A program made the position numbers and the translations under genes. From Candidatus Omnitrophota bacterium (lineage in GTDB: Bacteria > Omnitrophota > Gorgyraeia > Pluralincolimonadales > Pluralincolimonadaceae): a stretch of 64,000 nt of DNA. The notes beneath the pieces were generated by a model. It did no database searches. It saw only the letters and a list, made by a program, of their open reading frames with translations, and had not been told where the DNA came from. Positions 13,415 to 47,548 of this stretch are shown here, one piece after another. Numbering within the stretch: position 1 is the stretch's first letter; each line of letters starts with the position of its first letter. The stretch is from the NCBI GenBank assembly GCA_003141835.1, contig PLNR01000011.1:107804-171803 (forward strand), read 5' to 3'.

Positions 13415-14004
13415 CTATTTTCGCGCACTACTTTTGTTTTATTCTTTTTGTATTTCTTCAGGCAATTTTTGCACACGGCCCGGCCGTTCCTGAAATCCAG
13501 CTTCTCCCCGCATTCGCACATCCATCCGCATAACGCGGCCGGGTTGCCGTAAACAAGCGCGTAGTCCGGGACGTCTTTTGTAACAACCGATCCCGCTCCG
13601 GCGAAGGCATAAGCGCCGATCGTGTTGCCGCATATGATAGTCGCGTTGGCACCTATGCTGGCGCCGCGCTTGACCAGCGTATGCCGGATCTCGTCCATCC
13701 TCGGGACGGCGCTCCTGGGGTTGAATACGTTGGTAAAGACGCAGGAGGGCCCGCAGAATACGTCGTCCTCAAGCGTCACGCCCTTGTAAACCGAAACGTT
13801 GTTCTGGACCTTGACATTATTCCCTATCGACACATCCGGCCCGATCACGACGTTTTGCCCGATCCTGCAATCCTTTCCGACCCTGGAACCTTTCAATATG
13901 TGGGAAAAATGCCATATCTGAGTCCCCGCCCCTACCGTTGCGCCTTTATCCACATAGGAGGATTTATGGGCGCTGAAGACCTTCTTCTTGTTATTCTTTT
14001 CCAA
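13411..14004 (-). CDS. Left-handed beta-helix (hexapeptide) sugar N-acetyltransferase, WbpD/PglD-like, with a C-terminal Cys-rich tail.
   Basis: Repeated [LIV]GxxxxI hexapeptides. Tail motif [23 protein letters not shown]. Confidence 0.78.
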
Positions 14005-30243: not shown

Positions 30244-31231
30244 CGATATAGTCCTTTATTTCCCTTGTCTTGAATACGGCGTTTGGCAGGCGGGTTAACG
30301 GGTCCCGTATACCTTCCAGCAACTTTTTTTCGTCGAAAGACCTGAACCCGAGGTATTTCGCCCAGCCCATTTTATCGAAGTACTCGCACCTGCCTATCTG
30401 GTGTTCGTGAATAGCGATGAGGACCGACGGCGTCCTTGTCGCGACAAGCTCGAAACTGGTAAGCCCGCCCGCGGAAACGGCTATATCGCAATTCATGAAC
30501 TCATCGAACATATTCGTTATATCCTGCTTTATCCTGTATTTAACGCCTGAATCCTTTAAGCTTCCGGCCAGCCCTTCCATGTGCCGGTATCCCCCGCCCA
30601 CGACCACATACAGCTCCAGACCTGTTTTTCCCCTGATAAGGGCATCTACCACTTTTTGGGTGAAATTATATTCATCGGCTCCGCCCATCGATACCAGCAA
30701 TACCTCCGGCTTGCTTTTATAAGACCTGTTACGGATCCTCGTGAAATCAAAATCAAGCGGCAGGACCGCGTACTGCGGCCCAAGAAGGAATTTGGTGCCG
30801 GGATATTTCTTTTGGTCAAACAGCTTATCCGTACCTACATCCCAGTTCACCACCAGTGACATGCCGTCAGGGATAATGCCGTCGAAATTGATGCAGGCCT
30901 TTACCGCGCGATTTGTGACCCCCTTGTATTCCGTCAAGGGCCTTTCCGTTATTTCAAAGAAGGCCGCGTCGATCCCCCGGGACTCGATGTAACCATTTAT
31001 CTCTTCCGTTTCCTTCCCGATCGAATGCGGCCCTATGATAGCTAGATAATTATTTATCTTGTTCCTCTTTACTATTTCGACGGACTCATCATAATCCCTG
31101 ATGATAAAGTGAGATTCCCAGCCGTCATTCTCGAAATAGCGCGACAGGTGGATAAGCGAAACGAGGTCGCCGGTGCCTATCGACTGCTTCGCGTCGGCCC
31201 TGAAAAGCACTTTTTTTGTCACAGTATGCAA
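30230..31231 (-). CDS. pseG: PseG-like UDP-sugar hydrolase (UDP-2,4-diacetamido-2,4,6-trideoxy-beta-L-altropyranose hydrolase family, MurG-like fold).
   Basis: KVLFRADAKQSIGTG near the N-terminus, LVSMGGAD, and C-terminal DIAVSAGGLTSFEL match the conserved PseG blocks. 333 aa. Confidence 0.68.
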   Translation of the reverse strand: MHTVTKKVLFRADAKQSIGTGDLVSLIHLSRYFENDGWESHFIIRDYDESVEIVKRNKINNYLAIIGPHSIGKETEEINGYIESRGIDAAFFEITERPLTEYKGVTNRAVKACINFDGIIPDGMSLVVNWDVGTDKLFDQKKYPGTKFLLGPQYAVLPLDFDFTRIRNRSYKSKPEVLLVSMGGADEYNFTQKVVDALIRGKTGLELYVVVGGGYRHMEGLAGSLKDSGVKYRIKQDITNMFDEFMNCDIAVSAGGLTSFELVATRTPSVLIAIHEHQIGRCEYFDKMGWAKYLGFRSFDEKKLLEGIRDPLTRLPNAVFKTREIKDYIDGIL

Positions 31232-32289
31232 TCCCAGGTTATCGGGTCCTCGAAAAAGATATCTTTCTTTGCGGTGACCTTATTAGCCTTGAAAAGATCC
31301 AGGTATTTAGGCTCTAACCCGCGTTTTTTCTTCCCCGGCCTTAAGATCTCTATATCGGACGGCCCTATCCTCCGGCCTGCTTTTATGTCCTTGTTGGCGA
31401 AAAGCGCCATGTAAGCGAAATCCCTGAGGTATTTTTCCTTCTCGCCGGTGGTCTTCGCGCTGCTGCCGTAGATGAGCTTATCTATCCTGCATTTTCCTGC
31501 TTTAAGGCCGGATCCGGCCTTCCGTATCGCGGCGACCATCTCTTTCAGTTCATCCGGTTCCAGCGCAAAAAAATGGTCCGGCCCTTTCATCCTTTTATCA
31601 AGGGTTATGTGCTTTTCTATCACCCTGGCACCGAGATATACCGCCTGGACCGGGGCCGCGCAGGCCTCTTTGGTATGGTCAGAGTATCCTATCTCGAGGT
31701 CCGGAAAAGCCGACCCAAGGGTCCTGATAACCCCCAAATTACATTCCCTGAGGTCGGTGGGGTAAGCTATGGAGCAATGCAGCAGGGTGAGTTTATCGTG
31801 ATAACGCTTTACGGTGCTTACCGCATCCTCTACCTCCCCGAGCGTCGCCCCGCCGGTCGAGAGGAAGATCCTGAACCGCTTTTTTGCGCAATATTCAATG
31901 AACGGTATGTTGGTAACGGCATAAGAAGGGATCTTTATCGACCTTAACCCTCCGGCGATCAGCATATCCAGGCATGATCTGTCTGAAGCCGAACACAGGA
32001 AATCGATCTTCTTTTTCTTGCAATAGGCCGTCAACTTGCCTATCCAGGCGCGCGGCATCTCAAAACGGGCCGAGGCCTCATATATATCGTAGGAATACTT
32101 CTTGTCGTTATCGGTCCAGTCGAGCCTCCCTGCGCTTTTCGGATAGAGATATTTTGCCTTGAACAACTGGAACTTTGCCGCGTCGCATCCGGCCTCAGCA
32201 GCCGAATCGATAAGCCTGAAACAATTTTCGAGCAGGCCATTATGGTTTATCCCGATCTCGGCTATTATATATACTTTATTTTTCATCAA
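31219..32289 (-). CDS. pseI: Nonulosonic acid synthase (NeuB/PseI/LegI family), most likely pseudaminic acid synthase.
   Basis: YIIAEIGINHNGLLE…AKFQ TIM-barrel N-terminus and a C-terminal SAF domain. 356 aa. Confidence 0.82.
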   Translation of the reverse strand: MMKNKVYIIAEIGINHNGLLENCFRLIDSAAEAGCDAAKFQLFKAKYLYPKSAGRLDWTDNDKKYSYDIYEASARFEMPRAWIGKLTAYCKKKKIDFLCSASDRSCLDMLIAGGLRSIKIPSYAVTNIPFIEYCAKKRFRIFLSTGGATLGEVEDAVSTVKRYHDKLTLLHCSIAYPTDLRECNLGVIRTLGSAFPDLEIGYSDHTKEACAAPVQAVYLGARVIEKHITLDKRMKGPDHFFALEPDELKEMVAAIRKAGSGLKAGKCRIDKLIYGSSAKTTGEKEKYLRDFAYMALFANKDIKAGRRIGPSDIEILRPGKKKRGLEPKYLDLFKANKVTAKKDIFFEDPITWDCIL

Positions 32290-34171
32290 AATTTTTCCTG
32301 AACCAAAGCTCGAGGTTTATCAGCTGCCACAAGAACATCTGGTGGTCCTTGCCGCCTGCCAAATGCTCGTCGTATATCGCGTTCAATCTATCGACCTTAA
32401 AAATACCCCTGCTTTTTACGGATGGTGAATTGATCAGGTCGTATAACTCCCGCCTGTTCGTGGTCCTGAACCATTCGTTGGCGGGTGCTATGAAACCCGC
32501 CTTATCCTTCCTTGTCCTTACTTTCTCCGGTAATACGCCCTTCATGGACTCGCGCAACAGCCATTTCCCCAGGCCGCGGCGTATCTTGAACTTGTTGGGC
32601 AGCGAAAAACAGAACTCCGCAAGCCGGTAATCCAAAAACGGGGACCTCGACTCTATGGACTGGGACATCGTGTTCCTGTCCTCAGGCCTCAATGAGGCGG
32701 GTATCGTCTCGAACATCATCTCCGAATACAGCCGTTTTGATAAAAGGCTGCTGTAAGGGTTAGGCCAATGTATATCCCTCTTATGCCTGGATACTATATC
32801 CGCGTTAAAACATTCCGAGTAATCCGGGAACCTGCTCATTTCGCTGGTCTTGTTATCCACCAGCCGGCCGATATATTCTTTATACTTGTCTATCTCTGAA
32901 ATATCCCTGCCGTGGTTCTCCTTCCAAGTTTTCAACTCTTCCTGCAAAGATACGGCCTCGCCCTTCTGTTCCAGGTCATAAAAATTATAATGATAATGGT
33001 CCCAGTAGCCGGCAAGGAGCTCATCGCCGCCGTGGCCGTTTAACACGACCGGCGTCCTTTCGAGCTTCACTTTCTTGGCGATCAGGTAAAGGCTGTACCA
33101 GGTGACCGTGCATACCGGTTCGTCATGGTAACCCAACATCTCGTTTATGGTGCCAAAGAGATCCGCCGGGTCAGGCCTGATATAATGAAAATCGGCGTTC
33201 GTTTCTTTTATGACCGAATCGATGTACTCGCTCTCATCGTAAACGCCTTTTTTCTCGCCTGTGATCCCGGAGAACGCCACGATCGGTTTTTTCAGGATCT
33301 TGTAAGCGATACTGGTGATGGAAGTCGAATCCAACCCTCCGCTGAGCATGCATCCGACAGGGACATCGCTTCTCAGCCTTAACTTGACTGAATCGACCAG
33401 CAGGGCCTTAAACCTGTCTATCGCTTCGCCGTCGGATATCCCGCTCCTGTCCTCGGACGGGCGCAGCTGCCAATAATGATCCGTCCTGCATCCGAGGTTT
33501 TCATCGATCTCCATAAATGAGCTTTTGGGCACTTGGGAGATGCCGCTGAAATACGAATCCGCATCAACGTCTACATATCTGTAATTTGCCGCGATATACC
33601 TGTATATCTTGTCGTAATTCGGCTCTTTGACGGCCTTCGGGTGCTTCAAGATCCCTTTTATCTCAGAAGCGAATATAAGTTCGTTCCCGTTCTTTTGGTA
33701 ATAAAGCGGTTTTTTACCGAACCTGTCCCTCGACAATATTACTTTTTTACGTTTCTTGTCAAAGATCGCCAAAGCCCACATCCCGTTAAACCGCTCAAAA
33801 CACTCGGTCCCCCACTTCCCGTAGGCCTTAAGCACGACTTCCGTATCGCTCGTAGAGACGAACCGGCATCCGGCGCGGCCCAGTTCTTCCTTAAGCTCAA
33901 GATAATTATAGACCTCGCCGTTAAAGGTGATCGCTGCCCCGGTCTCGGGATCGACCATCGGCTGGCGGCCGGTTTCGGTAAGGTCGATGATCTTAAGCCT
34001 CCTGTGGCCGAATGCGACAAAACCGCCGTTCTTGCCGCTAAAGTCCGAAAAGATACCGCACCCGCTGCCGTCAGGGCCGCGGTGCGACTGCGCATCGGTC
34101 ATATTCTTGATCGTTGATGCCAGGTCGTAATCCGGCTTACGTATGCCGATAACGCCAGCTATGCCGCACAT
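32276..34171 (-). CDS. Asparagine synthase (glutamine-hydrolysing) family amidotransferase. Paralogue 2 of 3.
   Basis: MCGIAG N-terminus and SGGLDST PP-loop. 631 aa. Clearly paralogous to the gene at 128..2029. Confidence 0.88.
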   Translation of the reverse strand: MCGIAGVIGIRKPDYDLASTIKNMTDAQSHRGPDGSGCGIFSDFSGKNGGFVAFGHRRLKIIDLTETGRQPMVDPETGAAITFNGEVYNYLELKEELGRAGCRFVSTSDTEVVLKAYGKWGTECFERFNGMWALAIFDKKRKKVILSRDRFGKKPLYYQKNGNELIFASEIKGILKHPKAVKEPNYDKIYRYIAANYRYVDVDADSYFSGISQVPKSSFMEIDENLGCRTDHYWQLRPSEDRSGISDGEAIDRFKALLVDSVKLRLRSDVPVGCMLSGGLDSTSITSIAYKILKKPIVAFSGITGEKKGVYDESEYIDSVIKETNADFHYIRPDPADLFGTINEMLGYHDEPVCTVTWYSLYLIAKKVKLERTPVVLNGHGGDELLAGYWDHYHYNFYDLEQKGEAVSLQEELKTWKENHGRDISEIDKYKEYIGRLVDNKTSEMSRFPDYSECFNADIVSRHKRDIHWPNPYSSLLSKRLYSEMMFETIPASLRPEDRNTMSQSIESRSPFLDYRLAEFCFSLPNKFKIRRGLGKWLLRESMKGVLPEKVRTRKDKAGFIAPANEWFRTTNRRELYDLINSPSVKSRGIFKVDRLNAIYDEHLAGGKDHQMFLWQLINLELWFRKNFDEK

Positions 34172-34516
34172 CTATCGTTCTTTCCACTCGTCAAGCCAGC
34201 AGATTATCCTGTTATCCTGTCCCGTCTTCAGGTATTTTCTGAACTCCTTCATCTTTTCCTTTTCGACGGCATGGACATATAACTGGTGCCTCTCATTGAC
34301 GACGAGGGCAACCTTGAAACCCTCCTTTTTGAGCCTGCTGTTCAGGGAAGGGCCCAGGTAGAAACCCCAATCTTTGGCGGCAAAATCGCATTCCTTCCCG
34401 CTTTTCGTGACGAAGGATACCATCTCGCCGTCGTTGAGATATATCTTCCCGAGATCCTTTACTTTATGGCCCTTCACCTCAAAGACCCTCGGCGTTCTCT
34501 TGAATTTGGTTTTCAT
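34172..34516 (-). CDS. Small hypothetical protein (~114 aa).
   Basis: The ORF is wedged with zero spacing between an AsnB paralogue and the PseA-like gene. The internal ATG at 34516 gives an ATGA overlap. No recognisable motif. Confidence 0.38.
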   Translation of the reverse strand: MKTKFKRTPRVFEVKGHKVKDLGKIYLNDGEMVSFVTKSGKECDFAAKDWGFYLGPSLNSRLKKEGFKVALVVNERHQLYVHAVEKEKMKEFRKYLKTGQDNRIICWLDEWKER

Positions 34517-35631
34517 TTCCAATCCCGTCCTTTTACCAGAAAATCCTTTATCATCCACCTGCCGTTATCTTTCGACCATATCCTGCGGTTACGGAAATGT
34601 TCTTCGATCTCATGGAAACGGGCCAGGGAGATCCCCAAGAACGCGCACAGCCTGCGGATATCCCCATGCGGGACCTGGGGCCCTGTTTTCGCGATAACGC
34701 CGATTGCCCTTTCCCTCGTCATCCTGCCGTTGCGTATCTCGACCGAGAGGTTATCGAACAGCCTCGTAAAGCCGAACTTAAGCCATTTAAAATAATGGTG
34801 GACCGAGATGAAGTCGCAATCGATATCCGCATAGTCGTAATACCCTAATTTCGGTGCGCCGGGCCTGTTCTTGAACCCGTTCTCACGCGCTACCCTGTAA
34901 GTCTCCTGCGGGTCCCAGGGGATATAAAACCCTAAAAATATTGACTCGATCTTCTTTTCGCTGAATTCTTTGCCGCTTGGCAAAAAATACGGCTCAAGGC
35001 CTTTTCTTGTAAGGTCCCTGCCGACCCAATCCGCCGCCGAAGTCCCCTGCAATATCCCGTGGCGGTTGAACCAGCCCATGTCCAGCCTGTCGCGGTCCCT
35101 GTCCTTCTCAGGCCCGCCGTACTCCATGTGCGGGCTTTCGCCCCACACGACCAGCGGAATATTTAAACGGACCGCTATTTTTAAAGGGATGCTGAATAGC
35201 GCCATATGCATCGGGACTGCGGTGCTTCCCGTCTTTACAAGCGCCTTGTACATAAAGCGCCTTTCTATTTCCGGGTCGATGGAATAATCTATATGGTCGA
35301 CTCCCAGCCGGATGATGTTATCAAGGTTCTCCTGCCCCAATTCCGTCCTCGCCGGGGTCCTCCAGGTTACGGCCAGGATACGCAGCCCGTATTCCAGGCA
35401 TTTAACCACCTGCCAGGTGCTGTCCTTGCCTCCGCTTACCGGGACTATGCAATCATAACCGCCGGCCCTCGATCTCGCCTTACGGATGATCGCGGACAAT
35501 TCTTTCTTTCTTTTTGCCCAATCGATCGTCGCCTTATATTCATGCCCACGGCATGCCGAACAAACGCCATCCGGGCCGATCGTCAAACCCGGCCTTGTAT
35601 CCGGCAAGACACACTTAGCGCAATATCTCAT
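34513..35631 (-). CDS. N-acetyl sugar amidotransferase (PP-loop ATP-pyrophosphatase, WbuX/LfnA/PseA family), predicted to form an acetamidino sugar.
   Basis: N-terminal Zn-ribbon (CAKC…CSAC) followed by the PP-loop VPVSGGKDST. 372 aa. Confidence 0.7.
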   Translation of the reverse strand: MRYCAKCVLPDTRPGLTIGPDGVCSACRGHEYKATIDWAKRKKELSAIIRKARSRAGGYDCIVPVSGGKDSTWQVVKCLEYGLRILAVTWRTPARTELGQENLDNIIRLGVDHIDYSIDPEIERRFMYKALVKTGSTAVPMHMALFSIPLKIAVRLNIPLVVWGESPHMEYGGPEKDRDRDRLDMGWFNRHGILQGTSAADWVGRDLTRKGLEPYFLPSGKEFSEKKIESIFLGFYIPWDPQETYRVARENGFKNRPGAPKLGYYDYADIDCDFISVHHYFKWLKFGFTRLFDNLSVEIRNGRMTRERAIGVIAKTGPQVPHGDIRRLCAFLGISLARFHEIEEHFRNRRIWSKDNGRWMIKDFLVKGRDWK

Positions 35632-36261
35632 CTAAGTTCTTTCCTTGATCTTGACGGCCGGCACTCCCGCCAAAACTGAATTTTTTCCATACCTGCCCTC
35701 CCTTACAAGCGCCTTTGCGCCGACAACGCACCCATCCTCAAGGACCGCACCTTTCATGATCGCCGCGTTAGCCGCTATCCAGACATCGTTGCCGATGGAT
35801 ATCTTACCGTAAGTGTGTTTCTGGTCCTTTATCAGGGCGCCTTTACCGAAACCGTGCTGCGACGACTGTATGAAGATCATCCCTGAAATAAGGCAATCCT
35901 CTCCGATCGTGACATCCGTGCCGCAGTTAAAAAGGCAATATGGGCCGATCGAGGTGCGCTTGCCTATTTTTAAAATGGCGTCATTAGCCGAAACGAACCT
36001 GCAATCGTTATCTATCGCGACCCCGTCTTCGATGACTATCCTGCCGTTCTCCCTGTTCCTTATGTCTATGTCCCCGAAGATAGAGACGTTATCGCCTATC
36101 GAGATGTTGCGCGGATCACCTCTTAATTTCAATTTAGGGATGCCCTCTATGTAAAAATTCTTACCGACACGGATGCCATAGATCTTCAGTATGCTCTTGA
36201 TCACCCAGCTGTGGAAATAGCAGTATTTCTTGTTAGTTACCAGCGCGAGAAAATCAGGCAT
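35632..36261 (-). CDS. Hexapeptide-repeat (LbH) acyl/acetyltransferase.
   Basis: Multiple [LIV]Gxx hexapeptide turns (IGDNVSIFGDIDI…VIEDGVAIDNDC…). 209 aa. Confidence 0.7.
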   Translation of the reverse strand: MPDFLALVTNKKYCYFHSWVIKSILKIYGIRVGKNFYIEGIPKLKLRGDPRNISIGDNVSIFGDIDIRNRENGRIVIEDGVAIDNDCRFVSANDAILKIGKRTSIGPYCLFNCGTDVTIGEDCLISGMIFIQSSQHGFGKGALIKDQKHTYGKISIGNDVWIAANAAIMKGAVLEDGCVVGAKALVREGRYGKNSVLAGVPAVKIKERT

Positions 36262-37930
36262 GTTTGACCCCGTTCACTTTGAAGACTTTTTTCCAGTCCT
36301 CGAATACCATTGTTTTATAAGCGACCCTGTCATATTTACCCTGCCTTCCCCACTCGAACCACCTGTTCACCGGCGCGGAAAAACCCCTCTTATCCGTCCG
36401 CTCGACTATCTCTTTCGGTATGAATTTCCTGGCGACCTCTTTCAAGGCCCATTTGGTGATCCCGTTCTTTATCTTGTATTTTGACGGCATGGAAAAACCG
36501 AACTGGACGAGCCGGTAATCCAGGTACGGCGACCGGTTCTCTATGCTAAAAGCCATGCAAAGCCTGTCCGACATCTGCAGGAGGACCTGCATCGTGGAAT
36601 AGAAATCGTTAAGCCCCATGGCGTGGACTATGTCGTTGCTCATCTTGTCGAAGTAAAACCCGACCGATTCGCGGAGATACCTGTTTACGGATTCGTCATA
36701 CTGGTTCTCGCACCTGTTTATCAGCTTCGAGTATCTCTCTATGGGGCTTCCGTAATATTTGTCGACCAGGTATGAGTACTGTTTCATCGCCTCCAGGTGG
36801 TGTATCTGTTCGTCATGGTGGAGCAGGTGGTACCTGTGGTATCCCGCGAACGTCTCGTCCGCCCCTTCGCCGGAAAGGATCACCTTGAGGTCCTTCCTGG
36901 CCCTTTCCAGCAGCATCCATAACGAGAAGCTCGTCCAGGTGCACGGCGTATCGAGGTGATAGGCTATCTTTTCCCTGGTACGCAGAAAATCATCCCTTGT
37001 AGGCCTTATCACTATCAGTTTTTTCTTGATCTTTTTCGCGACGAGCTGCGCGTAGTCGAGTTCGTTGAAATCCTCATAGTCGTAATGGGCATGATAGATG
37101 AAATCCGGTTTCGCGATGCAGGCGATCAAAGCGCTGTCTACGCCGCCGCTGATAAAACACCCGTAGCTGTGGACGCAATTCTTGGTCCTCAGCATGATCG
37201 CGTCCTCTACCAATTCACCCAGCGTATTCAATACTTTCTTCTCGTTGTCTTTTACCTCGATGAGGTTATCCCATATCTTCCAGTATCCGTGTTTCGTAAA
37301 ATTATTTCCCTTCACCTTAAGGTATTCGCCGGGCTCGAGAGAATAAATGTCCTTAAACAGCGTCTCCGAAGAGACCGTGAATTCGTAAGCCTTATAGGAC
37401 AGGGCCGCGTCGTTAAACCTGGGTTTGACCACCCGGAGAAGGCATTTCATTTCGCTTGCAAACGCGAAGAAATCGCTACCATAAGCGTAATAAACCGGCT
37501 TTTCCCCGGTCTTGTCCCTTACTATATATGTGGTCTTCTTTCTCGCGTCAAAAAGCGCGAAAGCGTACATGCCGTTGTAATCGTTAAACGACTTTTCCCC
37601 GGTCTCGATGTAGTTACAAAGGATCGTCTCGGCCTCGGATGAGGTCTTGAACTCGTACTTGCCGGCCAGCCCCTTTCTTATTGAATCGTGGTTATAGACT
37701 TCACCGTTGTAGACTATCGCGTGGCTTGATGCCGCGTCTTCATACGGTATCCGGTGCCTGGAAGTGTCTATGATGCTCAATCTCGTCATGCCGATGGTGA
37801 CGTCGCCGTACGTCTCCACCCCGCGCTGGTCCGGGCCCCTGTAGCACATGTCATCGAGCATCTTCGACACGACCGACGAGGAGTTATATTTCTTTTTGTT
37901 GGAAGTTGTAAAACCCGCTATGCCGCACAT
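36254..37930 (-). CDS. Asparagine synthase (glutamine-hydrolysing) family amidotransferase. Paralogue 3 of 3.
   Basis: MCGIAG N-terminus and a GGVDSAL PP-loop variant. 558 aa. Confidence 0.82.
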   Translation of the reverse strand: MCGIAGFTTSNKKKYNSSSVVSKMLDDMCYRGPDQRGVETYGDVTIGMTRLSIIDTSRHRIPYEDAASSHAIVYNGEVYNHDSIRKGLAGKYEFKTSSEAETILCNYIETGEKSFNDYNGMYAFALFDARKKTTYIVRDKTGEKPVYYAYGSDFFAFASEMKCLLRVVKPRFNDAALSYKAYEFTVSSETLFKDIYSLEPGEYLKVKGNNFTKHGYWKIWDNLIEVKDNEKKVLNTLGELVEDAIMLRTKNCVHSYGCFISGGVDSALIACIAKPDFIYHAHYDYEDFNELDYAQLVAKKIKKKLIVIRPTRDDFLRTREKIAYHLDTPCTWTSFSLWMLLERARKDLKVILSGEGADETFAGYHRYHLLHHDEQIHHLEAMKQYSYLVDKYYGSPIERYSKLINRCENQYDESVNRYLRESVGFYFDKMSNDIVHAMGLNDFYSTMQVLLQMSDRLCMAFSIENRSPYLDYRLVQFGFSMPSKYKIKNGITKWALKEVARKFIPKEIVERTDKRGFSAPVNRWFEWGRQGKYDRVAYKTMVFEDWKKVFKVNGVKHA

Positions 37931-39250
37931 CTATTTTATATTTCCCATCTTTCCGTCGCCAACCAGGTGATATACCGTCTTGGGGGAGAATTTAAAATCC
38001 TTGAACAAGGCGACGTTATCGATCACAAGCGAGGCGTCGCGTATCCCGAGCGAATCAATATCCTTTTGGGTGAAATATTTATACCTGTTATGATCGGTCA
38101 TCAGGAGCACGGCCTGGCTCTTCAGCCCCTGCTTAAGCAGGTCGACATGGCGCGAGAACGGCAGGAGCTTCCGGATCGTCTTTTCATCGTAAAGCGGGTC
38201 GTCTATATAGACCTCGATCCCGAGTTTGTTCAGGTATTCCGCGATGGCAACGGACGGCGAAAGGTCTATGCTCTTCTGGTTGCCGCGCACCGTAAGCCCC
38301 ATGATCGTCACGGACTTGCAGCCTGCTTTCTTTATTACCTCTGCGTAATTGAAGATCAGGCTCATGTTGGATTCCTGGGATTCCTTGATCAGCGACAGGA
38401 ACTGGGGCTTTTTGCTTCCTTCGGAAATGTTCTCTACGGAGATCGGGATCTTGCTGCCTCCTGCCCCGATACACAGGTGCGACTCGTTAAGCTCGACGTC
38501 ATTGAGGAGATACTTGACCATGCCCCTGACATTCGTATCAGGATAAGCGAAGGAAAGCTGGTTGATGAAGACTGTCGTCATATATTGGAATGTATTCTTG
38601 GCGTTTTCGTAAAGTTCGGCCTCTTTTATCGTCCCGAGGGCCTTGAATTTGATGCCCAGCAGATTATAAAAGAACTGCGCCTCCGCCAATGATTTTTCGC
38701 TATCCGCCGCTAATATGCGTTTTTCGTTGCGGGCGAAATAATCCTCGATAGTCCAATCGCTGCGGAAAGCCGACGCGAAACCGCAGCCGCAGCCGTTCTG
38801 TTTTAACGGCGCGGTAAAATACCTGTCTATCACTCCGGGCCTGCCGGCGGATTGGAATATCACGAGGGCCCCTTTCAGGCGGCGCTTGTTCTTTATGAAT
38901 ATGCCGGCGAGTTCCTTAAGCGCGTTGTTGCCTTCCCTGTCGATCGCGGGGAACGCTATTACATGCACGCGGGAATCGAACATGCGGGCAGGGTCTTTTA
39001 TCATATTTATCCTGGAAATATCCAGGACCGGGATATCGCCGTTCACAGACCAGCTATATACCTGTTCCCTGTCCAGGTATTCGCCTTTCTTCAGTTTCTT
39101 TTCGAAATTCGTGCCGGTATAATCGAAGACGTCGGCCTTAAAACCCCTCGACTGCAGCTTTATGAGTTTCGTATAGCCGAGATACCCGGCTCCCCAAACG
39201 GAAACCAGTTTTGTCTTAAGCAATTCCTCTTTGAAGTTCTTCATGGTCAC
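37931..39250 (-). CDS. Divergent nucleotide-sugar dehydrogenase-family protein (UDP-glucose/GDP-mannose dehydrogenase-like).
   Basis: N-terminal VWGAGYLG Rossmann motif. The C-terminal block GLTVRGNQKSIDLSPSVAIAEYLNKLGIEVYIDDP resembles the UDPG_MGDP_dh C-terminal domain. 439 aa. Confidence 0.5.
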   Translation of the reverse strand: MTMKNFKEELLKTKLVSVWGAGYLGYTKLIKLQSRGFKADVFDYTGTNFEKKLKKGEYLDREQVYSWSVNGDIPVLDISRINMIKDPARMFDSRVHVIAFPAIDREGNNALKELAGIFIKNKRRLKGALVIFQSAGRPGVIDRYFTAPLKQNGCGCGFASAFRSDWTIEDYFARNEKRILAADSEKSLAEAQFFYNLLGIKFKALGTIKEAELYENAKNTFQYMTTVFINQLSFAYPDTNVRGMVKYLLNDVELNESHLCIGAGGSKIPISVENISEGSKKPQFLSLIKESQESNMSLIFNYAEVIKKAGCKSVTIMGLTVRGNQKSIDLSPSVAIAEYLNKLGIEVYIDDPLYDEKTIRKLLPFSRHVDLLKQGLKSQAVLLMTDHNRYKYFTQKDIDSLGIRDASLVIDNVALFKDFKFSPKTVYHLVGDGKMGNIK

Positions 39251-40392
39251 CCCCTTAATAGTTCTTTCAAGTGCCCTGTGACATATCCCGCGTCTTTTAC
39301 CGTCATCGAGGAGAACATCGGGATCGATAATATCTCGTTAAAGATCTTGTTGGCTACGGGAAAATCTCCCGCGCAGAACCTCTTTTTGTAATAGCTGTGC
39401 ATATGGAGAGGTATGTAATGGACGCTGGTCCCTATGTTCCTTTTCTTGAGCTCGATTATCAGGCTGTCCCTCTCCTGCCCCGAAGAGCCGGTCTTTATCA
39501 TGAACAAATGGTAATTGTGGAAGTGCTCGTCCGAATCTTTTGTAAAACCTGCCAAACCGTCCAATTCCTTACGGTAGAACGCCGCGAGCTTCCTGCGTTT
39601 CGCGAGCATCCGGTCGAGTTTCTTTAGCTGCACCAGCCCTATGGCCGCGTGGAGGCTGTCGAGGTTATATTTATATCCCTTCTCTTCGATGTCGTAGAAC
39701 CAGTTGCCGGTCTTGCCGTATCGTTTAAATGCCTGCTTATTAATGCCGAAATAACTTTTTTTCCGTATGCTCTCTATGAGATCCTTATTCCTCGATACCA
39801 CGAGGCCGCCCTCGCCCATGGCCAGGTTCTTTGTAGCGTAAAAACTGAAAACGGCGACGTCCGAGAAATTGCCGATCTTTTTACCGAAGTAGCGCGTCCC
39901 GATGGCATGGGCGGCGTCTTCGATCACCTTCAGGCCGTGCCTTTGCGCCAATTTATTTATCCCGTCTATATCGCAGGGGTATCCCGCTATATGGACCGGG
40001 ATTATCGCCTTGGTCCTTGAAGTGACGAGCCGCGAGGCTTTCTCGAGATCAATGTTCAGCGAATCTTCCTCCACGTCGCAAAGCACAAGTTTCGCGCCCA
40101 CCCAATCGACCACCTGCGCGGTAGCGGCAAAAGTCCATGTCGGGACGATCACCTCGTCGCCGGGCCCGATACCCAGCGCCTCAAGCGAAAGATGGAGGCC
40201 TGCGGTGCAGGAATTTAACCCAACGGCATAGAGCTGTTCCGGGCCTTTCAGGTAATCGACGATTTTGTCTTCAAATTCGGTGACTTTCGGGCCGGTCGTC
40301 CACCAGCCTGACCGCAAGACCGCCGCGGCGGCCTTCACCTCCTCATCCGAAACTTCAGGCCTCGAAAACGGAAGGAAATCTTTCCTTATCAT
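39247..40392 (-). CDS. DegT/DnrJ/EryC1/StrS-family PLP-dependent sugar aminotransferase (ArnB/PseC-like).
   Basis: FLPFSRPEVSDEEVKAAAAVLRSGWWTTGP N-terminus and a conserved lysine region. 381 aa. Confidence 0.85.
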   Translation of the reverse strand: MIRKDFLPFSRPEVSDEEVKAAAAVLRSGWWTTGPKVTEFEDKIVDYLKGPEQLYAVGLNSCTAGLHLSLEALGIGPGDEVIVPTWTFAATAQVVDWVGAKLVLCDVEEDSLNIDLEKASRLVTSRTKAIIPVHIAGYPCDIDGINKLAQRHGLKVIEDAAHAIGTRYFGKKIGNFSDVAVFSFYATKNLAMGEGGLVVSRNKDLIESIRKKSYFGINKQAFKRYGKTGNWFYDIEEKGYKYNLDSLHAAIGLVQLKKLDRMLAKRRKLAAFYRKELDGLAGFTKDSDEHFHNYHLFMIKTGSSGQERDSLIIELKKRNIGTSVHYIPLHMHSYYKKRFCAGDFPVANKIFNEILSIPMFSSMTVKDAGYVTGHLKELLRG

Positions 40393-41243
40393 TTTTCAAC
40401 CACCTCCCCTGTTCCCTGTTGCCCGACTTCGGGATACCAGCTGTCGCATTTCGCGCATAGCGAGTCCGTAAAAACGAGTTTTTCGTGTTCCATCCTCAAC
40501 CGGGCGTATTTTTCATTATGCCAGATCTCTCTTATAGTCTGCGAATTGACGTCGCCCATCGGCTCGCCGGCCCAATCATGGTTGCACCTGCCGGTCTTTC
40601 CGTCATAATAGACAAGCAGCTCGTAGTTAGGCATCACGCAGGGCTTTCTTTCTTTGCGCGGCTTGCGTATCGCGCCGAAGACGCCATTTATCGAGTGCTC
40701 CTCGTATACCCGGATCCTGTCGACCTTTCCGTCCCATATCTTCTTAAAAAGCTCGACGTTATTTTGAGGCGTCCCGGCCGTCTTTACCATCGATACCTGC
40801 GTCCTGACCTTCCCTTTATTGAATTTCAGGAAATCCAGGATGTTGCCTTCCACGGCGGAATATACGGCAGGCTTCCTGGTTTTATCGAAGACCGAAGGGA
40901 CATCTATACTGAAAGAGATGAAAGTAAGGCCCTTTACGATCGCTTCAAATTTTTCCGGATTGAGGAGCGTGGCGTTCGTCGCCATCTGAACTTCCTTGAA
41001 TTTCCCCGGGATATACCCCATCAGGCTGTTGAAGGCCGGATGAAGCAGGCTCTCTCCTCTCCTGTGCAGGACCAGGATGGTATCGGGAAAAGGGCTTATC
41101 TCATCTATGATCTTCCTGAAAAGTTTTTCGCTTATGAACCCGCTCGGGTTATCCAAATAACTACGCGGGCAATAGGTGCAGCGCAGGTTGCAGGAATTGG
41201 AAAGCTCGATCTCTACCCTTTTAGGAAAATCAGGAGTCAGCAT
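40389..41243 (-). CDS. Radical SAM protein (non-B12), possibly with a C-terminal Cys-rich auxiliary (twitch/SPASM-like) region.
   Basis: ELSNSCNLRCTYCP CxxxCxxC motif, and CAKCDSW near the C-terminus. 284 aa. Confidence 0.75.
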   Translation of the reverse strand: MLTPDFPKRVEIELSNSCNLRCTYCPRSYLDNPSGFISEKLFRKIIDEISPFPDTILVLHRRGESLLHPAFNSLMGYIPGKFKEVQMATNATLLNPEKFEAIVKGLTFISFSIDVPSVFDKTRKPAVYSAVEGNILDFLKFNKGKVRTQVSMVKTAGTPQNNVELFKKIWDGKVDRIRVYEEHSINGVFGAIRKPRKERKPCVMPNYELLVYYDGKTGRCNHDWAGEPMGDVNSQTIREIWHNEKYARLRMEHEKLVFTDSLCAKCDSWYPEVGQQGTGEVVEK

Positions 41244-41926
41244 TTTTTTTCTTTCAACAGCAGGTCAAATATATCCCTCGACTTGAAATCATAAACCGGG
41301 CCCAGGGCCGCGGCTATTTTATTGCATAACTTAATGTCTTCGGGATTATCGACTGTCAGCGAAATATCCGATATCTCCAACGGGCGCATCTTTGCGTCAA
41401 CAAATTTCGTTTTGAATTTTCCATTGTTATTCTTCAGGAACAGGGTGACATGCTCAGACTCGGCTTCGGATGCCCCTTCGGAAGACCTCCGCAGCGCTGA
41501 CAAGGTAATGACTTCCGAGTCCAGCCCGGCGATACAAGTGTTTTTATCCGGCGCGACGTAATCCAGCCCTTCATCAGCCTGTATATTGAACATTTTGTCT
41601 ATGAGCCCGGTGTCTACGAACGGGGAATCGCCGCATACCCGGCAAACGACGCCCGCTTTAAAAAACTCGGCGGCTTTTATATACCTGTCCAGGACGTTAT
41701 CAAGCGACCCGCGGAAGGCCTTGATCCCGCGCTTTACGCAATAAGCATAAAGCCCGTCATCACTGCCGTCGTCCGAGGTGATAACGGCGATGATCTCCGC
41801 TTCTTTCGAGGCCGAAGACCTTTTGTAGACATATTCGACCAAAGGTACGCCATCCAGGACCGGAGCGAGCATCTTTCCCGGGAATCTTTTTGAAGAAGAA
41901 CGCGCCTGGATCAACAAGGCCTTCAT
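41237..41926 (-). CDS. CMP-nonulosonic-acid synthetase / acylneuraminate cytidylyltransferase family (PseF/NeuA/SpsF-like).
   Basis: MKALLIQARSSSKRFPGK (cytidylyltransferase P-loop). 229 aa. Confidence 0.7.
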   Translation of the reverse strand: MKALLIQARSSSKRFPGKMLAPVLDGVPLVEYVYKRSSASKEAEIIAVITSDDGSDDGLYAYCVKRGIKAFRGSLDNVLDRYIKAAEFFKAGVVCRVCGDSPFVDTGLIDKMFNIQADEGLDYVAPDKNTCIAGLDSEVITLSALRRSSEGASEAESEHVTLFLKNNNGKFKTKFVDAKMRPLEISDISLTVDNPEDIKLCNKIAAALGPVYDFKSRDIFDLLLKEKKC

Positions 41927-42025: not shown

Positions 42026-42535
42026 CTAAAGCCTCTCCACCACGTCGTTGTCCACTTCCGCGGCCAACGACCTGCCGAGAAGGTCCACCGAGATGACCAG
42101 CGTGCCCTTTTTGTCGTTGAATTTCTCGAATATGCCGATAGCTCCCCTGAGCGGCCCGTCTACAACGACGATCCTCTCGCCGGCGTTCAGGTAAGGGTGC
42201 GGCGACGGATCTATCCCCGATTCTACGATCATTCTTACGCTCTCTATCTGCTCTACGGGAATGGCCAGGGGGGCCGTTTTTGTGCCCAGGATATTGACCA
42301 CGCCTTCGGTCTTTTTGACCTCAAGCCAATCCTGGGTGGTAGCGGCACACTCGACAAAAAGATAGCCCGGGAAAAGCGGCCTTGCCACTTTTATCTTCCT
42401 GTCCTTCCTCCTGCTCCATTTGAGGACGGTCGGATAGAAGGTCTTGATCGATCTCTTGTTCAGGAGGTAGCTTACCTTGAACTCGTAGTTCGACCGCGTC
42501 CTTACCGCATACCATTTGTGGGCAAGCGCTATCAT
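42026..42535 (-). CDS. NusG/RfaH-family transcription antitermination paralogue (UpxY/LoaP-like), locus-specific.
   Basis: NGN domain (KWYAVRTRSNYEFKV…PLFPGYLFV) plus a KOW motif (GERIVVVDGPLRGAIGIF). 169 aa. Located at the head of the glycan operon rather than in a secE-nusG-rplK context. Confidence 0.8.
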   Translation of the reverse strand: MIALAHKWYAVRTRSNYEFKVSYLLNKRSIKTFYPTVLKWSRRKDRKIKVARPLFPGYLFVECAATTQDWLEVKKTEGVVNILGTKTAPLAIPVEQIESVRMIVESGIDPSPHPYLNAGERIVVVDGPLRGAIGIFEKFNDKKGTLVISVDLLGRSLAAEVDNDVVERL

Positions 42536-42538
42536 ATT

Positions 42539-43150
42539 TTATAGTCCGTGCACGGGCATTTTAGCCAGTTCCGCGTCATCGTTTATCCTCTTCAGGATCT
42601 TATCCTTATAACGCATGGATGTGATTATTATCGCGTCCGGTTTGAGGGCTTTGATCGTCTCCGGGCCGCCTATTGTGAAATTGAACTTCTTTGTGCCCTG
42701 CTTTTCCTTATCATCGTCGATTATCCCCAAAACCTCTATACCGGCCTCATGAGATATCACGAACGCAACTTCCATGACATCTCCGGCACCGTAGAATACG
42801 GCGCGCTTAACGCCTTGTCTTGAGATGGAATCGAGCTTTTCGGCGAGGTTTTTTTTGAGGTCTATGTAATAGTGGACTGTATATTCGAGGAAATGGTAGG
42901 TAAGCCTTGTCTTCTCGCTGAAACCTTCGGGAGTGAGGAAATACGATATGCGCTTGTGGTTTATGCCCTTGATCTTTATATAGCCCTTATTCGCCATCTT
43001 TTTAAGGCAGGCGTTGGTCACGCCCAGAGCCACGCCAAGCCGCTCCGAAAGTTTCCTCTGGGACGCGCCGGAATCCCTGGAGATCTCCTCCAGCAACTGA
43101 AGATTTCGCAAGTCTTCTGTTGGTTTACGGAAGCTGTTATCAGTGGGCAT
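42539..43150 (-). CDS. Rex-like transcriptional regulator: N-terminal winged helix fused to a C-terminal CoA-binding-type Rossmann domain.
   Basis: wHTH region (…SQRKLSERLGVALGVTNACLKKMANKGYIKI…) followed by VFYGAGDVMEVAF…GIEVLGIIDDDKEKQGTKK…AIIITS, which parallels the Rex GxGxxG…F-D-x-D-P-x-K dinucleotide-binding region. 203 aa. Confidence 0.6.
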   Translation of the reverse strand: MPTDNSFRKPTEDLRNLQLLEEISRDSGASQRKLSERLGVALGVTNACLKKMANKGYIKIKGINHKRISYFLTPEGFSEKTRLTYHFLEYTVHYYIDLKKNLAEKLDSISRQGVKRAVFYGAGDVMEVAFVISHEAGIEVLGIIDDDKEKQGTKKFNFTIGGPETIKALKPDAIIITSMRYKDKILKRINDDAELAKMPVHGL

Positions 43151-43182: not shown

Positions 43183-43211
43183 ATTTTACGTTATAACCCC
43201 TGTCCTGTCAA
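43183..43211 (-). promoter_or_regulatory. Sigma70-type promoter, TTGACA-17 nt-TAAAAT, about 32 nt upstream of the regulator ATG. Candidate promoter for the regulator, nusG paralogue and glycan operon.
   Basis: Minus-strand -35 (plus coordinates 43206-43211) and -10 (43183-43188) hexamers with 17-nt spacing, read from the sequence. Confidence 0.42.
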
Positions 43212-46237: not shown

Positions 46238-47548
46238 TTACAGCCTTTCTATTTTATTACGGTTCGTTTTAATATTCCTCAACGCGTTACGGGTATCGAG
46301 GATGAACTTCGAATTCTTGACTACAAAACCGTAATCGACGTTCGAGTGGTCGGTCACTATTACCACGCATTCTTTGGCCTTGAGCTCCGATGCGGTAAGC
46401 TTCACCGACTTCAGCTTGTGCCCGTTGAACGCGGATTCCGGCACGAAGGGATCATAATATGATATGACCGCCCCGCGCTCCTTGAGTTTTTCTATTACCT
46501 CGTATGCCGGTGATTCCCTCGTGTCTGTCACGTCTTTTTTGTAGGAGAGGCCTATAATGAGTATCTTAGCGCCCTTGACCGCCTTCCCGAACCTGTTATT
46601 GAGCGAACGCGATACCCTTTCGGCGACGTGTTCCGGCATGTCGGCGTTCACTTTTGAGGCCAGGTCGATGAACCTGGGCTCGAATCCCTGGATCCTCGCC
46701 TTCCATGCCAGGTATATGGGGTCTATAGGGATGCAATGCCCTCCTAATCCCGGGCCGGGGTAGAACGGCATGTAGCCGAACGGCTTTGTCTTCGCGGCCT
46801 CGATGATCTCCCATACGTCCACCTTGAGGCTGTCGCACATGAGCGCGAGTTCGTTCACGAGCCCGATGTTGACCGACCTGAAGGTATTCTCGAGGAGCTT
46901 GACCATCTCCGCCACTTTCACCGACGAGACCGGTATGACCTTCCCACATATCTGGGAGTACAGCAATTCTATATTATTCCTGCATATCTTCGTCATGCCG
47001 CTTACGACTTTCGGTATGTTATGCGTCATATATGTGGGATTGCCCGGGTCGATCCTCTCAGGGGAAAACCCGAGGCAGAAATCCTTTCCCACTTTCAGGC
47101 CGGTGGCCTCCAATATCGGGAGTATTACCTCCTCTGTGGTACCGGGATAAGTCGTGGATTCGAGCACTATCACCTGCCCCCGCCTTAAATTCCCGGCGAT
47201 CGCCTCGGCTGCCGAGACGATGAAAGACATGTCCGGATCTTTTGTCTTCCTTAACGGCGTCGGGACGCAGATTATTATGGCGTCCACTTCCTTTAGCTTC
47301 GAATAATCGCGGGTAGCCCTGAGCGCGCCCCTCTTTACCAGGGGCTTGATCTCCTCGCTGGGGATATCCAGTATATAGGAATTACCCGAGGTTATGGAAT
47401 CCACCTTGTTCTTGTCGAGGTCGACGCCGAGCGCCTTGAAGCCTTTCTTGGCGAATTCCACCGCAAGGGGCAATCCGACATAACCGAGGCCGATCACCGC
47501 GACCCTGGCCTCTTTCCGGTTTATCTTTGCTTTAAATTTCGCAACCAT
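46238..47548 (-). CDS. UDP-N-acetyl-D-glucosamine/mannosamine 6-dehydrogenase (WbpA/WbpO/TviB/WecC family).
   Basis: VAVIGLGYVGLPLAVEFAKKG and the UDPG_MGDP_dh C-terminal domain. 436 aa. Confidence 0.85.
   Translation of the reverse strand: MVAKFKAKINRKEARVAVIGLGYVGLPLAVEFAKKGFKALGVDLDKNKVDSITSGNSYILDIPSEEIKPLVKRGALRATRDYSKLKEVDAIIICVPTPLRKTKDPDMSFIVSAAEAIAGNLRRGQVIVLESTTYPGTTEEVILPILEATGLKVGKDFCLGFSPERIDPGNPTYMTHNIPKVVSGMTKICRNNIELLYSQICGKVIPVSSVKVAEMVKLLENTFRSVNIGLVNELALMCDSLKVDVWEIIEAAKTKPFGYMPFYPGPGLGGHCIPIDPIYLAWKARIQGFEPRFIDLASKVNADMPEHVAERVSRSLNNRFGKAVKGAKILIIGLSYKKDVTDTRESPAYEVIEKLKERGAVISYYDPFVPESAFNGHKLKSVKLTASELKAKECVVIVTDHSNVDYGFVVKNSKFILDTRNALRNIKTNRNKIERL

Follow-up and report, generated by a model that had tools for sequence, protein, structure and literature searches.

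Flagella, capsules and lipopolysaccharides carry nonulosonic acids (sialic, pseudaminic and legionaminic acids), sugars that govern immune recognition, phage adsorption and motility. To our knowledge, every characterised route to the 5,7-diamino nonulosonates starts with a 4,6-dehydratase of the short-chain dehydrogenase/reductase (SDR) type. Ketones are made on sugar rings by the radical S-adenosylmethionine (SAM) enzymes SpeY, BlsE and DesII, in pathways that also use DegT-type enzymes; all three belong to actinomycete secondary metabolism and not to cell-surface glycan synthesis. BtrN is the 2-deoxy-scyllo-inosamine dehydrogenase of butirosin biosynthesis (PDB entries 4m7s and 4m7t), where it works with a DegT-family aminotransferase. 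A radical SAM dehydrogenase, it has an auxiliary cluster that is ligated by four cysteines and catalytically essential (PMC10337720). Here we describe a gene for a relative of BtrN, hereafter rSAM, in a 64,000-nucleotide stretch of a Candidatus Omnitrophota bacterium (contig PLNR01000011.1; the whole stretch is called the window), where it stands among genes for nonulosonate synthesis. We propose that rSAM makes the ketone that the neighbouring DegT-family aminotransferase (hereafter DegT) aminates, a proposal that we regard as likely while leaving real room for error.

Results

A predicted twitch-type radical SAM protein closest to BtrN

The predicted rSAM protein matches the Pfam families Radical_SAM (PF04055; 42.5 bits, cutoff 29.5) and SPASM (40.2 bits, cutoff 21.5), with the motifs CNLRCTYCP at residues 18-26 and CAKCDSW at residues 263-269, and a Pfam scan gave no match to the B12-binding domain (PF02310). 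Its gene overlaps the DegT gene by 4 nt and that of a CTP_transf_3 cytidylyltransferase by 7 nt. A preliminary reading of the DNA made without database searches (the sequence-only reading) had described a 284-residue non-B12 radical SAM/SPASM-type protein within a nonulosonate module, and this description was borne out. A word-indexed search of 5.8 billion proteins returned 334 homologues at E<=1e-3, the best 120 of which share 57-88% identity over their full length, and AlphaFold2, supplied with 118 homologues, gave a confident model (mean pLDDT 91.4, pTM 0.89) of alternating beta and alpha elements whose top Foldseek matches are all radical SAM enzymes. In view of these homologues and this model, the open reading frame (ORF) is a genuine gene and no chance ORF. 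Almost the whole gene is covered by an antisense ORF of 269 codons with a GTG start (40485-41294, plus strand), most likely a shadow ORF since the conserved homologues belong to the minus-strand frame.

Exactly seven cysteines are invariant among the 118 family members; the protein itself has seven in total, and no other column of the family exceeds 27% cysteine. C18-X3-C22-X2-C25, invariant in 118/118, are the predicted ligands of the SAM-cleaving [4Fe-4S] cluster, and C202, C220, C263 and C266 those of one auxiliary [4Fe-4S] cluster. Full SPASM domains bind two auxiliary clusters and twitch domains one. Because only four cysteines are conserved beyond the three of the SAM cluster, rSAM is predicted to be of the twitch type, with a single auxiliary cluster and no spare thiol, and not a full SPASM maturase. 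The family also has invariant motifs of its own, namely HRRGES, RCNHDW and a C-terminal WY..G.Q.TG tail.

BtrN is the best PDB match of rSAM by single sequence (E 6.6e-10), by family profile (E 2.8e-18, the runner-up having 1.6e-5) and by structure in Foldseek (E 4.9e-13, TM-score 0.72 normalised to BtrN). SpeY (a twitch dehydrogenase), BlsE and DesII share the superfamily and the fold neighbourhood, with far weaker sequence matches than that of BtrN (for SpeY, entry 7wzv, profile E 1.8e-4). Counted along the HMMER alignment, C169, C187, C232 and C235 of BtrN align with the four predicted auxiliary-cluster ligands of rSAM, so that both proteins have CX3CX2C and four auxiliary-cluster cysteines at matching positions, and the invariant R-G-E-S of rSAM (residues 62-65) aligns with Y-G-E-P of BtrN within the GGE-like SAM-binding motif GE(S/P)LL. 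Both are small single chains (269-270 residues in the BtrN crystal constructs, 284 in rSAM) with a carbohydrate-like small-molecule context and a DegT-family aminotransferase as partner. They differ in that they share only 16-18% identity, that BtrN belongs to a 2-deoxystreptamine aminoglycoside cluster whereas rSAM lies in a nonulosonate and cell-surface polysaccharide operon without aminocyclitol genes, and that the presumed substrate of rSAM is nucleotide-linked. On these comparisons rSAM is not a BtrN orthologue, but it may work like BtrN.

None of the 25 best NCBIfam matches of rSAM exceeds its cutoff, the best being the tungsten-enzyme maturase model W_rSAM_matur (79.6 bits, cutoff 380). 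The sequence-only reading had asked whether the protein might prove to be a housekeeping enzyme of the QueE or PflA class; models of the PflA, NrdG and QueE types are absent from these 25 matches and from the PDB match lists, the gene context is conserved in sugar clusters across phyla, and we consider on this evidence that rSAM is not a housekeeping enzyme. Of the relationships for which the same reading had suggested a profile search, that to SPASM/twitch enzymes held, with BtrN closest among them, and that to DesII did not.

A gene quartet conserved across phyla

Loci with rSAM orthologues, which are 55-88% identical, were taken from GTDB species representatives (38 loci) and from further metagenomes, and their ORFs were classified by phmmer with the window proteins as queries. 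The hosts are Nitrospirota (including Ca. Magnetominusculus), Omnitrophota, Desulfobacterales, Campylobacterota, Nitrospinota, Ca. Scalindua, Cloacimonadota, Gammaproteobacteria, Dependentiae, a Hydrothermarchaeota bin and a Myxococcaceae bin; 36 of the 38 GTDB records are labelled metagenome-assembled genomes and the other two are uncultured Candidatus taxa. Most of these lineages are anaerobic or microaerophilic, as would suit hosts of an oxygen-sensitive enzyme.

Where the flanking sequence sufficed, a DegT gene adjoins the rSAM gene in 32/33, a gene for a protein with the NDP-sugar dehydrogenase fold (Ugd-like) lies downstream in 27/32, and a first AsnB-like amidotransferase gene follows in 28/30. 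The genes for rSAM, DegT, the Ugd-like and the AsnB-like protein thus form a conserved quartet. The cytidylyltransferase gene is directly upstream of rSAM in 21/33 loci, and in the 18 loci with long flanks NeuB-like genes were counted in 12, PseG-like in 12, GNAT in seven and WbuX-type in eight. In compact loci such as L023 and L033 the gene order is cytidylyltransferase, rSAM, DegT, Ugd-like, AsnB-like, NeuB-like, PseG-like and GNAT. The sole locus lacking DegT, on an Omnitrophota chromosome (L038/L045), has a cytidylyltransferase gene, an EamA gene and rSAM; we set it aside as a decayed remnant, the protein being labelled partial by NCBI and lying at the cluster edge. An apparent in-frame rSAM-DegT fusion (P0140; L046, 1909-3642) was likewise discarded as evidence: its DegT and Ugd-like genes are fragmented, the junction lies beside an A6 run, and it is probably an indel artefact or a decaying locus.

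A profile search of 1.84 billion representatives placed the gene in a far larger family (881 proteins at E<=1e-30 and 13,088 at E<=1e-10), in which the orthologue group comprises only about eight representatives, scoring above 270 bits, all others being related twitch enzymes some 300-350 residues long. The two paralogue groups sampled, P0146 and P0150, stand beside DegT genes, P0150 also beside an AsnB-like gene. In P0245 a twitch radical SAM domain is fused to a cytidylyltransferase-like domain (E 1.4e-17 to the cytidylyltransferase hidden Markov model, HMM), and P0276 has the full-length spiro-SPASM architecture, its N-terminus matching the same HMM (E 1.6e-7). The spiro-SPASM proteins have related radical SAM and twitch parts, and what is a cytidylyltransferase-rSAM gene pair here is one polypeptide there; by contrast rSAM is separate and unfused, and scores far below the cutoff of TIGR04321 (60.6 bits, cutoff 250, over profile positions 229-332 of 510). 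The cytidylyltransferase of the locus has no NCBIfam match to TIGR04321, the link being seen only through the custom HMM against the fused relatives, and a full-text literature search found no paper on the function of spiro-SPASM. Ca. Scalindua (L036, 16365-18788) has a second, divergent pair of cytidylyltransferase-like and twitch radical SAM genes (109 bits to rSAM), with a HisH-like glutamine amidotransferase next.

A nonulosonate module without PseB

The nonulosonate setting of the rSAM gene is real, since genes for NeuB-like, PseG-like and GNAT proteins belong to the same string of minus-strand genes. Every role of the pseudaminic acid (Pse) pathway has a homologue in the module (PseF-, PseC-, PseG-, PseI- and PseH-like) except PseB. 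The PseB query was a Helicobacter pylori sequence checked against the curated model (534.8 bits, cutoff 407.75); no ORF of the window or of the 45 loci scanned scored more than 45.8 bits with it, and the best window score of the PseB HMM itself was 62 bits against that cutoff. No PseB-type 4,6-dehydratase was found within 10 kb, in the window or in the 45 loci. As for the Pse-like proteins that are present, the scores suggest homology and no equivalog: PseC, PseG, PseI and PseF models all match below their cutoffs (for the NeuB/PseI-like protein, PseI 214.7 against 340.25 and TIGR03569 282.3 against 399.65). With PseB missing and the other equivalogs below cutoff, the module does not, as far as these models tell, encode the canonical pathway. 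Since there is no SDR 4,6-dehydratase and the Pse-like proteins fall short of their cutoffs, the product is not expected to be 9-deoxy.

The sequence-only reading had seen in rSAM an additional step on a complete Pse or legionaminic acid (Leg) pathway; the lack of a PseB/LegB-type 4,6-dehydratase speaks against this, and the quartet stands in the place of PseB. Its suggested test substrate, UDP-4-amino-4,6-dideoxy-HexNAc (HexNAc, N-acetylhexosamine), is unlikely, as nothing in the module makes a 6-deoxy sugar. The sugar-cluster context is conserved across phyla, and a non-standard sugar, which it had also foreseen, is indeed the likely outcome.

The partner proteins

DegT scores 354.6 bits with the PseC model (cutoff 423.5; 84%) and 358 bits with ArnB (cutoff 631), and in the PDB its matches are ArnB (290 bits), WbpE (167), H. 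pylori PseC (136) and the Kdo8N enzyme KdnA (5k8b; 117), the 2-deoxy-scyllo-inosose aminotransferases 2c7t and 5w71 being also among them. It thus appears closest to the C-4 aminotransferases ArnB and PseC and further from the C-3 enzyme WbpE. The CTP_transf_3 protein has KdsB as its best NCBIfam match (50 bits; PseF 16.8, cutoff 205.7) and an unnamed cytidylyltransferase, 6oew, as its nearest solved structure; divergent from both PseF and KdsB, it is the sole candidate CMP-ulosonate synthetase of the module.

The Ugd-like protein could be a pseudoenzyme or a substrate-binding subunit. Of 27 orthologues, 26 keep the Rossmann motif WGxGYLG (WGMGYLA in the other), and all 27 lack the catalytic cysteine of GGxC (GGSK here, GGHC in the canonical paralogue of the window) and have the catalytic lysine position replaced as well. 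The protein is thereby ruled out as a uronate-forming dehydrogenase. Both AsnB-like proteins of the module keep the N-terminal cysteine nucleophile (MCGIAG), and for this reason an adenylated carboxylate is probably amidated. In one locus, L006, a dehydrogenase of the Ugd-like lineage with both cysteine and lysine and a NadE-like PP-loop amidating enzyme take the place of the Ugd-like/AsnB-like pair; this dehydrogenase abuts the cassette and shares with the Ugd-like proteins the VWGxGY motif, indels and the C-terminal tail. These substitutes suggest that the ancestral task of the pair was to make and amidate a uronate. Given the co-conservation of the pair and the substitutes of L006, the precursor is probably a uronate or uronamide. 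Homologues of the canonical HexNAc 6-dehydrogenase directly adjoin the cassette in L004/L016 and are 2-5 kb away in L013/L018; that of the window, outside the UpxY unit and about 5 kb upstream of the cassette, is a possible supplier of the uronate precursor.

Layout of the locus

The window belongs to a 222-kb contig of a metagenome assembly in ENA, and its DnaJ gene (61566..62723), which clusters at 90% identity or more with proteins of Candidatus Omnitrophota, places it in an Omnitrophota bacterium. The whole window is transcribed leftwards (Table 1). The best sigma-70-like match is an only suggestive candidate for the start of the transcription unit, the counts of promoter-like and terminator-like sites not exceeding shuffled expectation, and no terminator-like site was found on the minus strand from this match down to 30769. 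GC content is 0.46-0.54 across the window and 0.50-0.51 at 32-44 kb, with no sharp module boundary. The small ORF between the WbuX-like and second AsnB-like genes is kept in that position in many loci (140-199 bits). WbuX/PseA-type amidotransferases form acetamidino groups.

Table 1. Features of the rSAM locus, listed in the direction of transcription (positions in the window)
Feature	Position	Strand	Remarks
Canonical NDP-HexNAc 6-dehydrogenase	46238..47548	-	Catalytic Cys GGHC; TIGR03026 446.7 bits, above cutoff
Best sigma-70-like promoter match	43183..43211	-	TTGACA-17-TAAAAT, 11/12; just upstream of MarR/UpxY genes
MarR-family EPS-associated regulator	42539..43150	-	Pfam HTH_24; NCBIfam MarR_EPS 68.5 bits, cutoff 88
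UpxY-family (NusG-like) operon antiterminator	42026..42535	-	antiterm_UpxY 109.4 bits, above cutoff 100
CTP_transf_3 cytidylyltransferase	41237..41926	-	Pfam 81.9 bits
rSAM, predicted twitch-type radical SAM enzyme	40389..41243	-	ATG start, 284 aa
DegT-family aminotransferase (ArnB/PseC-like)	39247..40392	-	Pfam 412 bits
Ugd-like protein, NDP-sugar dehydrogenase fold	37931..39250	-	TIGR03026 87 bits over full length, below cutoff
AsnB-like glutamine-dependent amidotransferase	36254..37930	-	Begins MCGIAG; fourth member of the quartet
Hexapeptide-repeat acyltransferase	35632..36261	-	Accessory
WbuX/PseA-type N-acetyl sugar amidotransferase	34513..35631	-	Accessory; TIGR03573 325 bits, above cutoff 203
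Small conserved ORF	34172..34558	-	114 aa as called, 128 aa as longest ORF; no Pfam or NCBIfam match
Second AsnB-like amidotransferase	32276..34171	-	Accessory
NeuB/PseI-like ulosonate synthase (phosphoenolpyruvate condensation)	31219..32289	-	Pfam NeuB 247 bits
PseG-like UDP-sugar hydrolase	30230..31231	-	Weak match; TIGR03590 103 bits, cutoff 153.55
GNAT N-acyltransferase (WecD-like)	29482..30243	-	Candidate for PseH role

Several other genes of the window, all on the minus strand, deserve mention. The polysaccharide locus has three genes with B12-binding and Radical_SAM domains (28068-29474, 23262-24746 and 18877-20370), probably C- or P-methyltransferase-like, homologues of which adjoin the cassette in L008, L042 and L019; between them lie ORFs of 593 and 511 codons (26290-28071 and 24750-26285) without a Pfam match at E<=1e-3. 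A third AsnB-like amidotransferase (633 aa, 128-2029) is encoded at the far end and brings the total for this polysaccharide cluster to three. Immediately before the MarR/UpxY genes, on their upstream side, an SDR gene (43240-44304) resembles UDP-glucuronate decarboxylase, the C-terminal domain of ArnA and dTDP-glucose dehydratase; in its longest form this ORF shares 139 nt with the DegT gene that precedes it (a 309-residue version is called in ENA), and close homologues (376-390 bits) stand directly upstream of rSAM in L031 and L032, replacing the cytidylyltransferase. Finally, a canonical WbpB/WbpD/WbpI-like set (GFO_IDH_MocA oxidoreductase, hexapeptide acetyltransferase and UDP-GlcNAc 2-epimerase) is found at 12350-15007. 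As it shares the locus with rSAM, this Omnitrophota host has both NAD-type and radical-SAM-type candidates for sugar oxidation ahead of transamination.

Discussion

The locus described here probably encodes a variant nonulosonate pathway in which rSAM and the Ugd-like and AsnB-like proteins replace the usual 4,6-dehydratase step. The reaction, its position on the ring, the substrate and the order of steps are proposed as follows. SAM would be reductively cleaved at the CX3CX2C cluster and the 5'-deoxyadenosyl radical would take a hydrogen atom from the carbinol carbon; the resulting ketyl radical would give an electron to the single Cys4-ligated auxiliary [4Fe-4S] cluster and become a ketone, which the translationally coupled ArnB/PseC-like DegT would convert to an amine. 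Within the pathway, C-6 of a UDP-HexNAc would be oxidised to a uronate and the carboxylate amidated, with the participation of the Ugd-like and AsnB-like proteins, after which rSAM would oxidise the C-4 hydroxyl and DegT would install the 4-amine. The GNAT or hexapeptide-repeat enzyme would N-acylate this amine, the PseG-like hydrolase would remove UDP, the NeuB-like synthase would condense the sugar with phosphoenolpyruvate (PEP), and the cytidylyltransferase would activate the product with CMP. Amidation would shield the 4-keto-uronate, a beta-keto acid, from decarboxylation, and the cleavage of SAM would make the oxidation irreversible without oxygen or an NAD+ sink.

The ketone is assigned to DegT because BtrN likewise feeds a DegT-family aminotransferase in butirosin synthesis. 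The position C-4 on a UDP-HexNAc derivative is suggested by the absence of PseB, by the ArnB/PseC type of DegT and by the need for O-3 to survive. The nonulosonate formed by NeuB/PseI has the former O-3 of the hexose as its ring oxygen, and the retention of O-3 argues against both a BlsE-like 3-deoxygenation and an amination at C-3. A net two-electron oxidation would be needed since a C-6-oxidised sugar has no 6-hydroxyl to eliminate, which closes the redox-neutral PseB route. The proposed logic is that of PseB/PseC and LegB/LegC (4-keto UDP-HexNAc, C-4 transamination, N-acylation, removal of the nucleotide, PEP condensation and CMP activation), with rSAM, Ugd-like and AsnB-like proteins standing where the SDR 4,6-dehydratase would be. 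It also resembles WbpB/WbpE and ArnA/ArnB, in which a ring hydroxyl of a UDP-(HexNAc)uronate undergoes net oxidation and a DegT aminotransferase is thereby fed; there the oxidant is an NAD+-dependent GFO/IDH/MocA or SDR enzyme, whereas here it would be a radical SAM enzyme, and, in contrast to ArnA with its decarboxylation of the substrate, the genes here are co-conserved with that of an amidotransferase. The dehydrogenation of an alcohol to a ketone that feeds the aminotransferase, which we find the best supported chemistry, was missing from the list of the sequence-only reading. For the full statement, in which rSAM is a BtrN-type dehydrogenase acting on a UDP-HexNAc or UDP-HexNAc uronate in the stead of PseB, our confidence falls just short of an even balance.

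Several observations weigh against this proposal. The oxidation of alcohol to ketone is inferred only from homology and from the partnership with DegT, and function is not transferable at the 16-18% identity that separates rSAM from BtrN; in the fold search BlsE, DesII, SpeY, anSME and peptide-modifying SPASM enzymes have similar TM-scores. The PseG-, PseI- and PseC-like proteins are all below curated cutoffs, and a pseB or legB gene could sit elsewhere in the genomes, the span examined being +-10 kb. As the Ugd-like protein has lost its catalytic residues, some other enzyme has to supply the uronate, and only about one locus in three has a canonical dehydrogenase close by. Lastly, the gene order, the short overlaps on both sides of rSAM and the cytidylyltransferase-twitch fusions fit a CMP-linked substrate equally well.

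This last point leads to the possibility that the same chemistry, from hydroxyl to ketone to DegT, takes place late, on the CMP-activated ulosonic acid, in a manner that resembles the formation of Kdo8N by KdnB/KdnA but on a CMP-sugar, and adds an extra amino group to a nonulosonate or octulosonate. We hold such a late step to be unlikely, though it deserves to be taken seriously. The order cytidylyltransferase-rSAM-DegT with its overlaps, the 21 loci in which the cytidylyltransferase is directly upstream, the fused enzymes P0245 and P0276 and the second pair in L036 all agree with it; however, fusions indicate functional association and not the order of steps, and 12/33 loci have no cytidylyltransferase directly upstream. 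DegT is moreover much more akin to ArnB and PseC, which aminate UDP-pyranos-4-uloses, than to KdnA, and the missing PseB step would be unexplained if the sugar is 5,7-diamino.

A radical SAM 1,2-diol dehydratase of the BlsE/AprD4 kind would also supply DegT with a substrate, in this case a deoxy-keto sugar, and BlsE does precede an aminotransferase in blasticidin S biosynthesis. BlsE (7vob) appears in the fold search (E 3.8e-10, TMq 0.67), and an auxiliary cluster does not discriminate oxidation from dehydration. The substrate of BlsE is a glucuronic acid derivative, and rSAM is surrounded by uronate-related genes (PMC3715490 for BlsE). Nevertheless, BlsE has no sequence or profile match to rSAM in the PDB at E<=1, against 2.8e-18 for BtrN, and TIGR04466 (BlsE) is not among the 25 best NCBIfam matches; loss of the 3-hydroxyl or a C-3 amine would remove the ring-closing oxygen, in conflict with the NeuB-like and cytidylyltransferase genes. 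A dehydratase is in our estimation quite improbable.

We give still less credence to a DesII-like lyase acting after the aminotransferase, by which an amino sugar would be deaminated to a deoxy-keto sugar, with C-4 deoxygenation as by DesI/DesII. The pairing of an aminotransferase with a radical SAM enzyme is indeed that of DesI/DesII, and DesII is found in the fold search (E 2.5e-10), but the sequence similarity is negligible (phmmer E 0.63, over residues 4-95 of the N-terminal core only) and the DesII chains in that search have 458-479 residues as against 284. DesII is not known to have an auxiliary cluster, in contrast to the strictly conserved Cys4 site of the rSAM family. The 4-keto-6-deoxy substrate of DesI is moreover made by a 4,6-dehydratase, and the window and the 45 loci lack one. 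The core set also contains no second aminotransferase or obvious ketoreductase. DesII-like deamination, like epimerisation, had been put forward by the sequence-only reading, and the E value and the predicted auxiliary cluster make it a disfavoured option.

As an epimerase, rSAM would invert one stereocentre of the precursor, for example C-5, and so take over the inversion that PseB performs. Twitch-type carbohydrate epimerases such as HygY and NeoN exist, and a route with a PseG-like hydrolase would need some source of this C-5 inversion; but the known epimerases return hydrogen from a conserved cysteine thiol, all seven cysteines of rSAM are predicted cluster ligands with no eighth conserved one, and an epimerase would explain neither the near-obligate adjacency of DegT nor the origin of its ketone, so that epimerisation by rSAM seems very improbable (an EpeE C223A mutant is listed among the PDB entry titles of the fold matches). 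Just as little probability is given to a protein or peptide maturase of the anSME or RiPP (ribosomally synthesised and post-translationally modified peptide) kind that modifies a neighbour, for instance the Ugd-like protein, which has lost its nucleophile, or the small ORF: maturases are the best NCBIfam matches and SuiB, SkfB, anSME and EpeE are in the fold list, but all these NCBIfam scores are far below their cutoffs, rSAM has one auxiliary-cluster site and no extra peptide-binding domain (284 residues, against 316-440 for the peptide-modifying matches), the small ORF is accessory and not core, and the conserved context is uniformly one of sugar-nucleotide enzymes.

The conserved set might encode a hitherto unrecognised pathway that depends on a radical SAM enzyme and leads to ulosonic acids of a class new to bacteria, an idea that we advance tentatively and consider rather doubtful. 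A candidate product would be a 5,7-diamino-3,5,7-trideoxy-nonulosonate whose C-9 is a carboxamide or oxygenated, not a methyl group as in Pse and Leg; the candidate masses of the diacetyl forms are 363.128 Da (C13H21N3O9) for the carboxamide and 350.133 Da for the oxygenated sugar, compared with 334.138 Da for Pse/Leg. Were the 4-keto-uronate to decarboxylate, the candidate would be an eight-carbon diamino-octulosonate of 320.122 Da.

A full-text literature search, with most subscription journals outside its coverage, yielded no account of the rSAM family, nor of nonulosonate synthesis with a radical SAM step; twitch radical SAM enzymes and 5,7-diamino-ulosonate synthesis are known separately, and their combination, as predicted here, appears not to have been described before. 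The association of rSAM with its partners is strong and phylogenetically broad and predicts a new sugar, the function being wholly inferred, and a gene set that recurs in many anaerobic phyla points to an undescribed surface sugar. The pathway to a new class of ulosonic acid, if it exists, would bring a radical SAM enzyme for the first time into the primary nucleotide-sugar metabolism that serves cell-surface glycans, and would do so in many uncultured anaerobic phyla. An alternative to the 4,6-dehydratase built around an oxygen-sensitive radical SAM oxidase would represent a new enzymatic solution for making keto-sugars under anaerobic conditions. Two puzzles would become testable, namely the dehydrogenase-fold protein that lacks its nucleophile and is yet strictly co-conserved, and the spiro-SPASM family of spirochaetes. 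The genes for rSAM, DegT, Ugd-like and AsnB-like proteins would serve as a genomic marker for the predicted sugar in Omnitrophota, magnetotactic Nitrospirota, sulfate reducers, Campylobacterota, Nitrospinota and anammox bacteria, and BtrN-type chemistry would extend from antibiotic pathways to the primary synthesis of cell-surface glycans.

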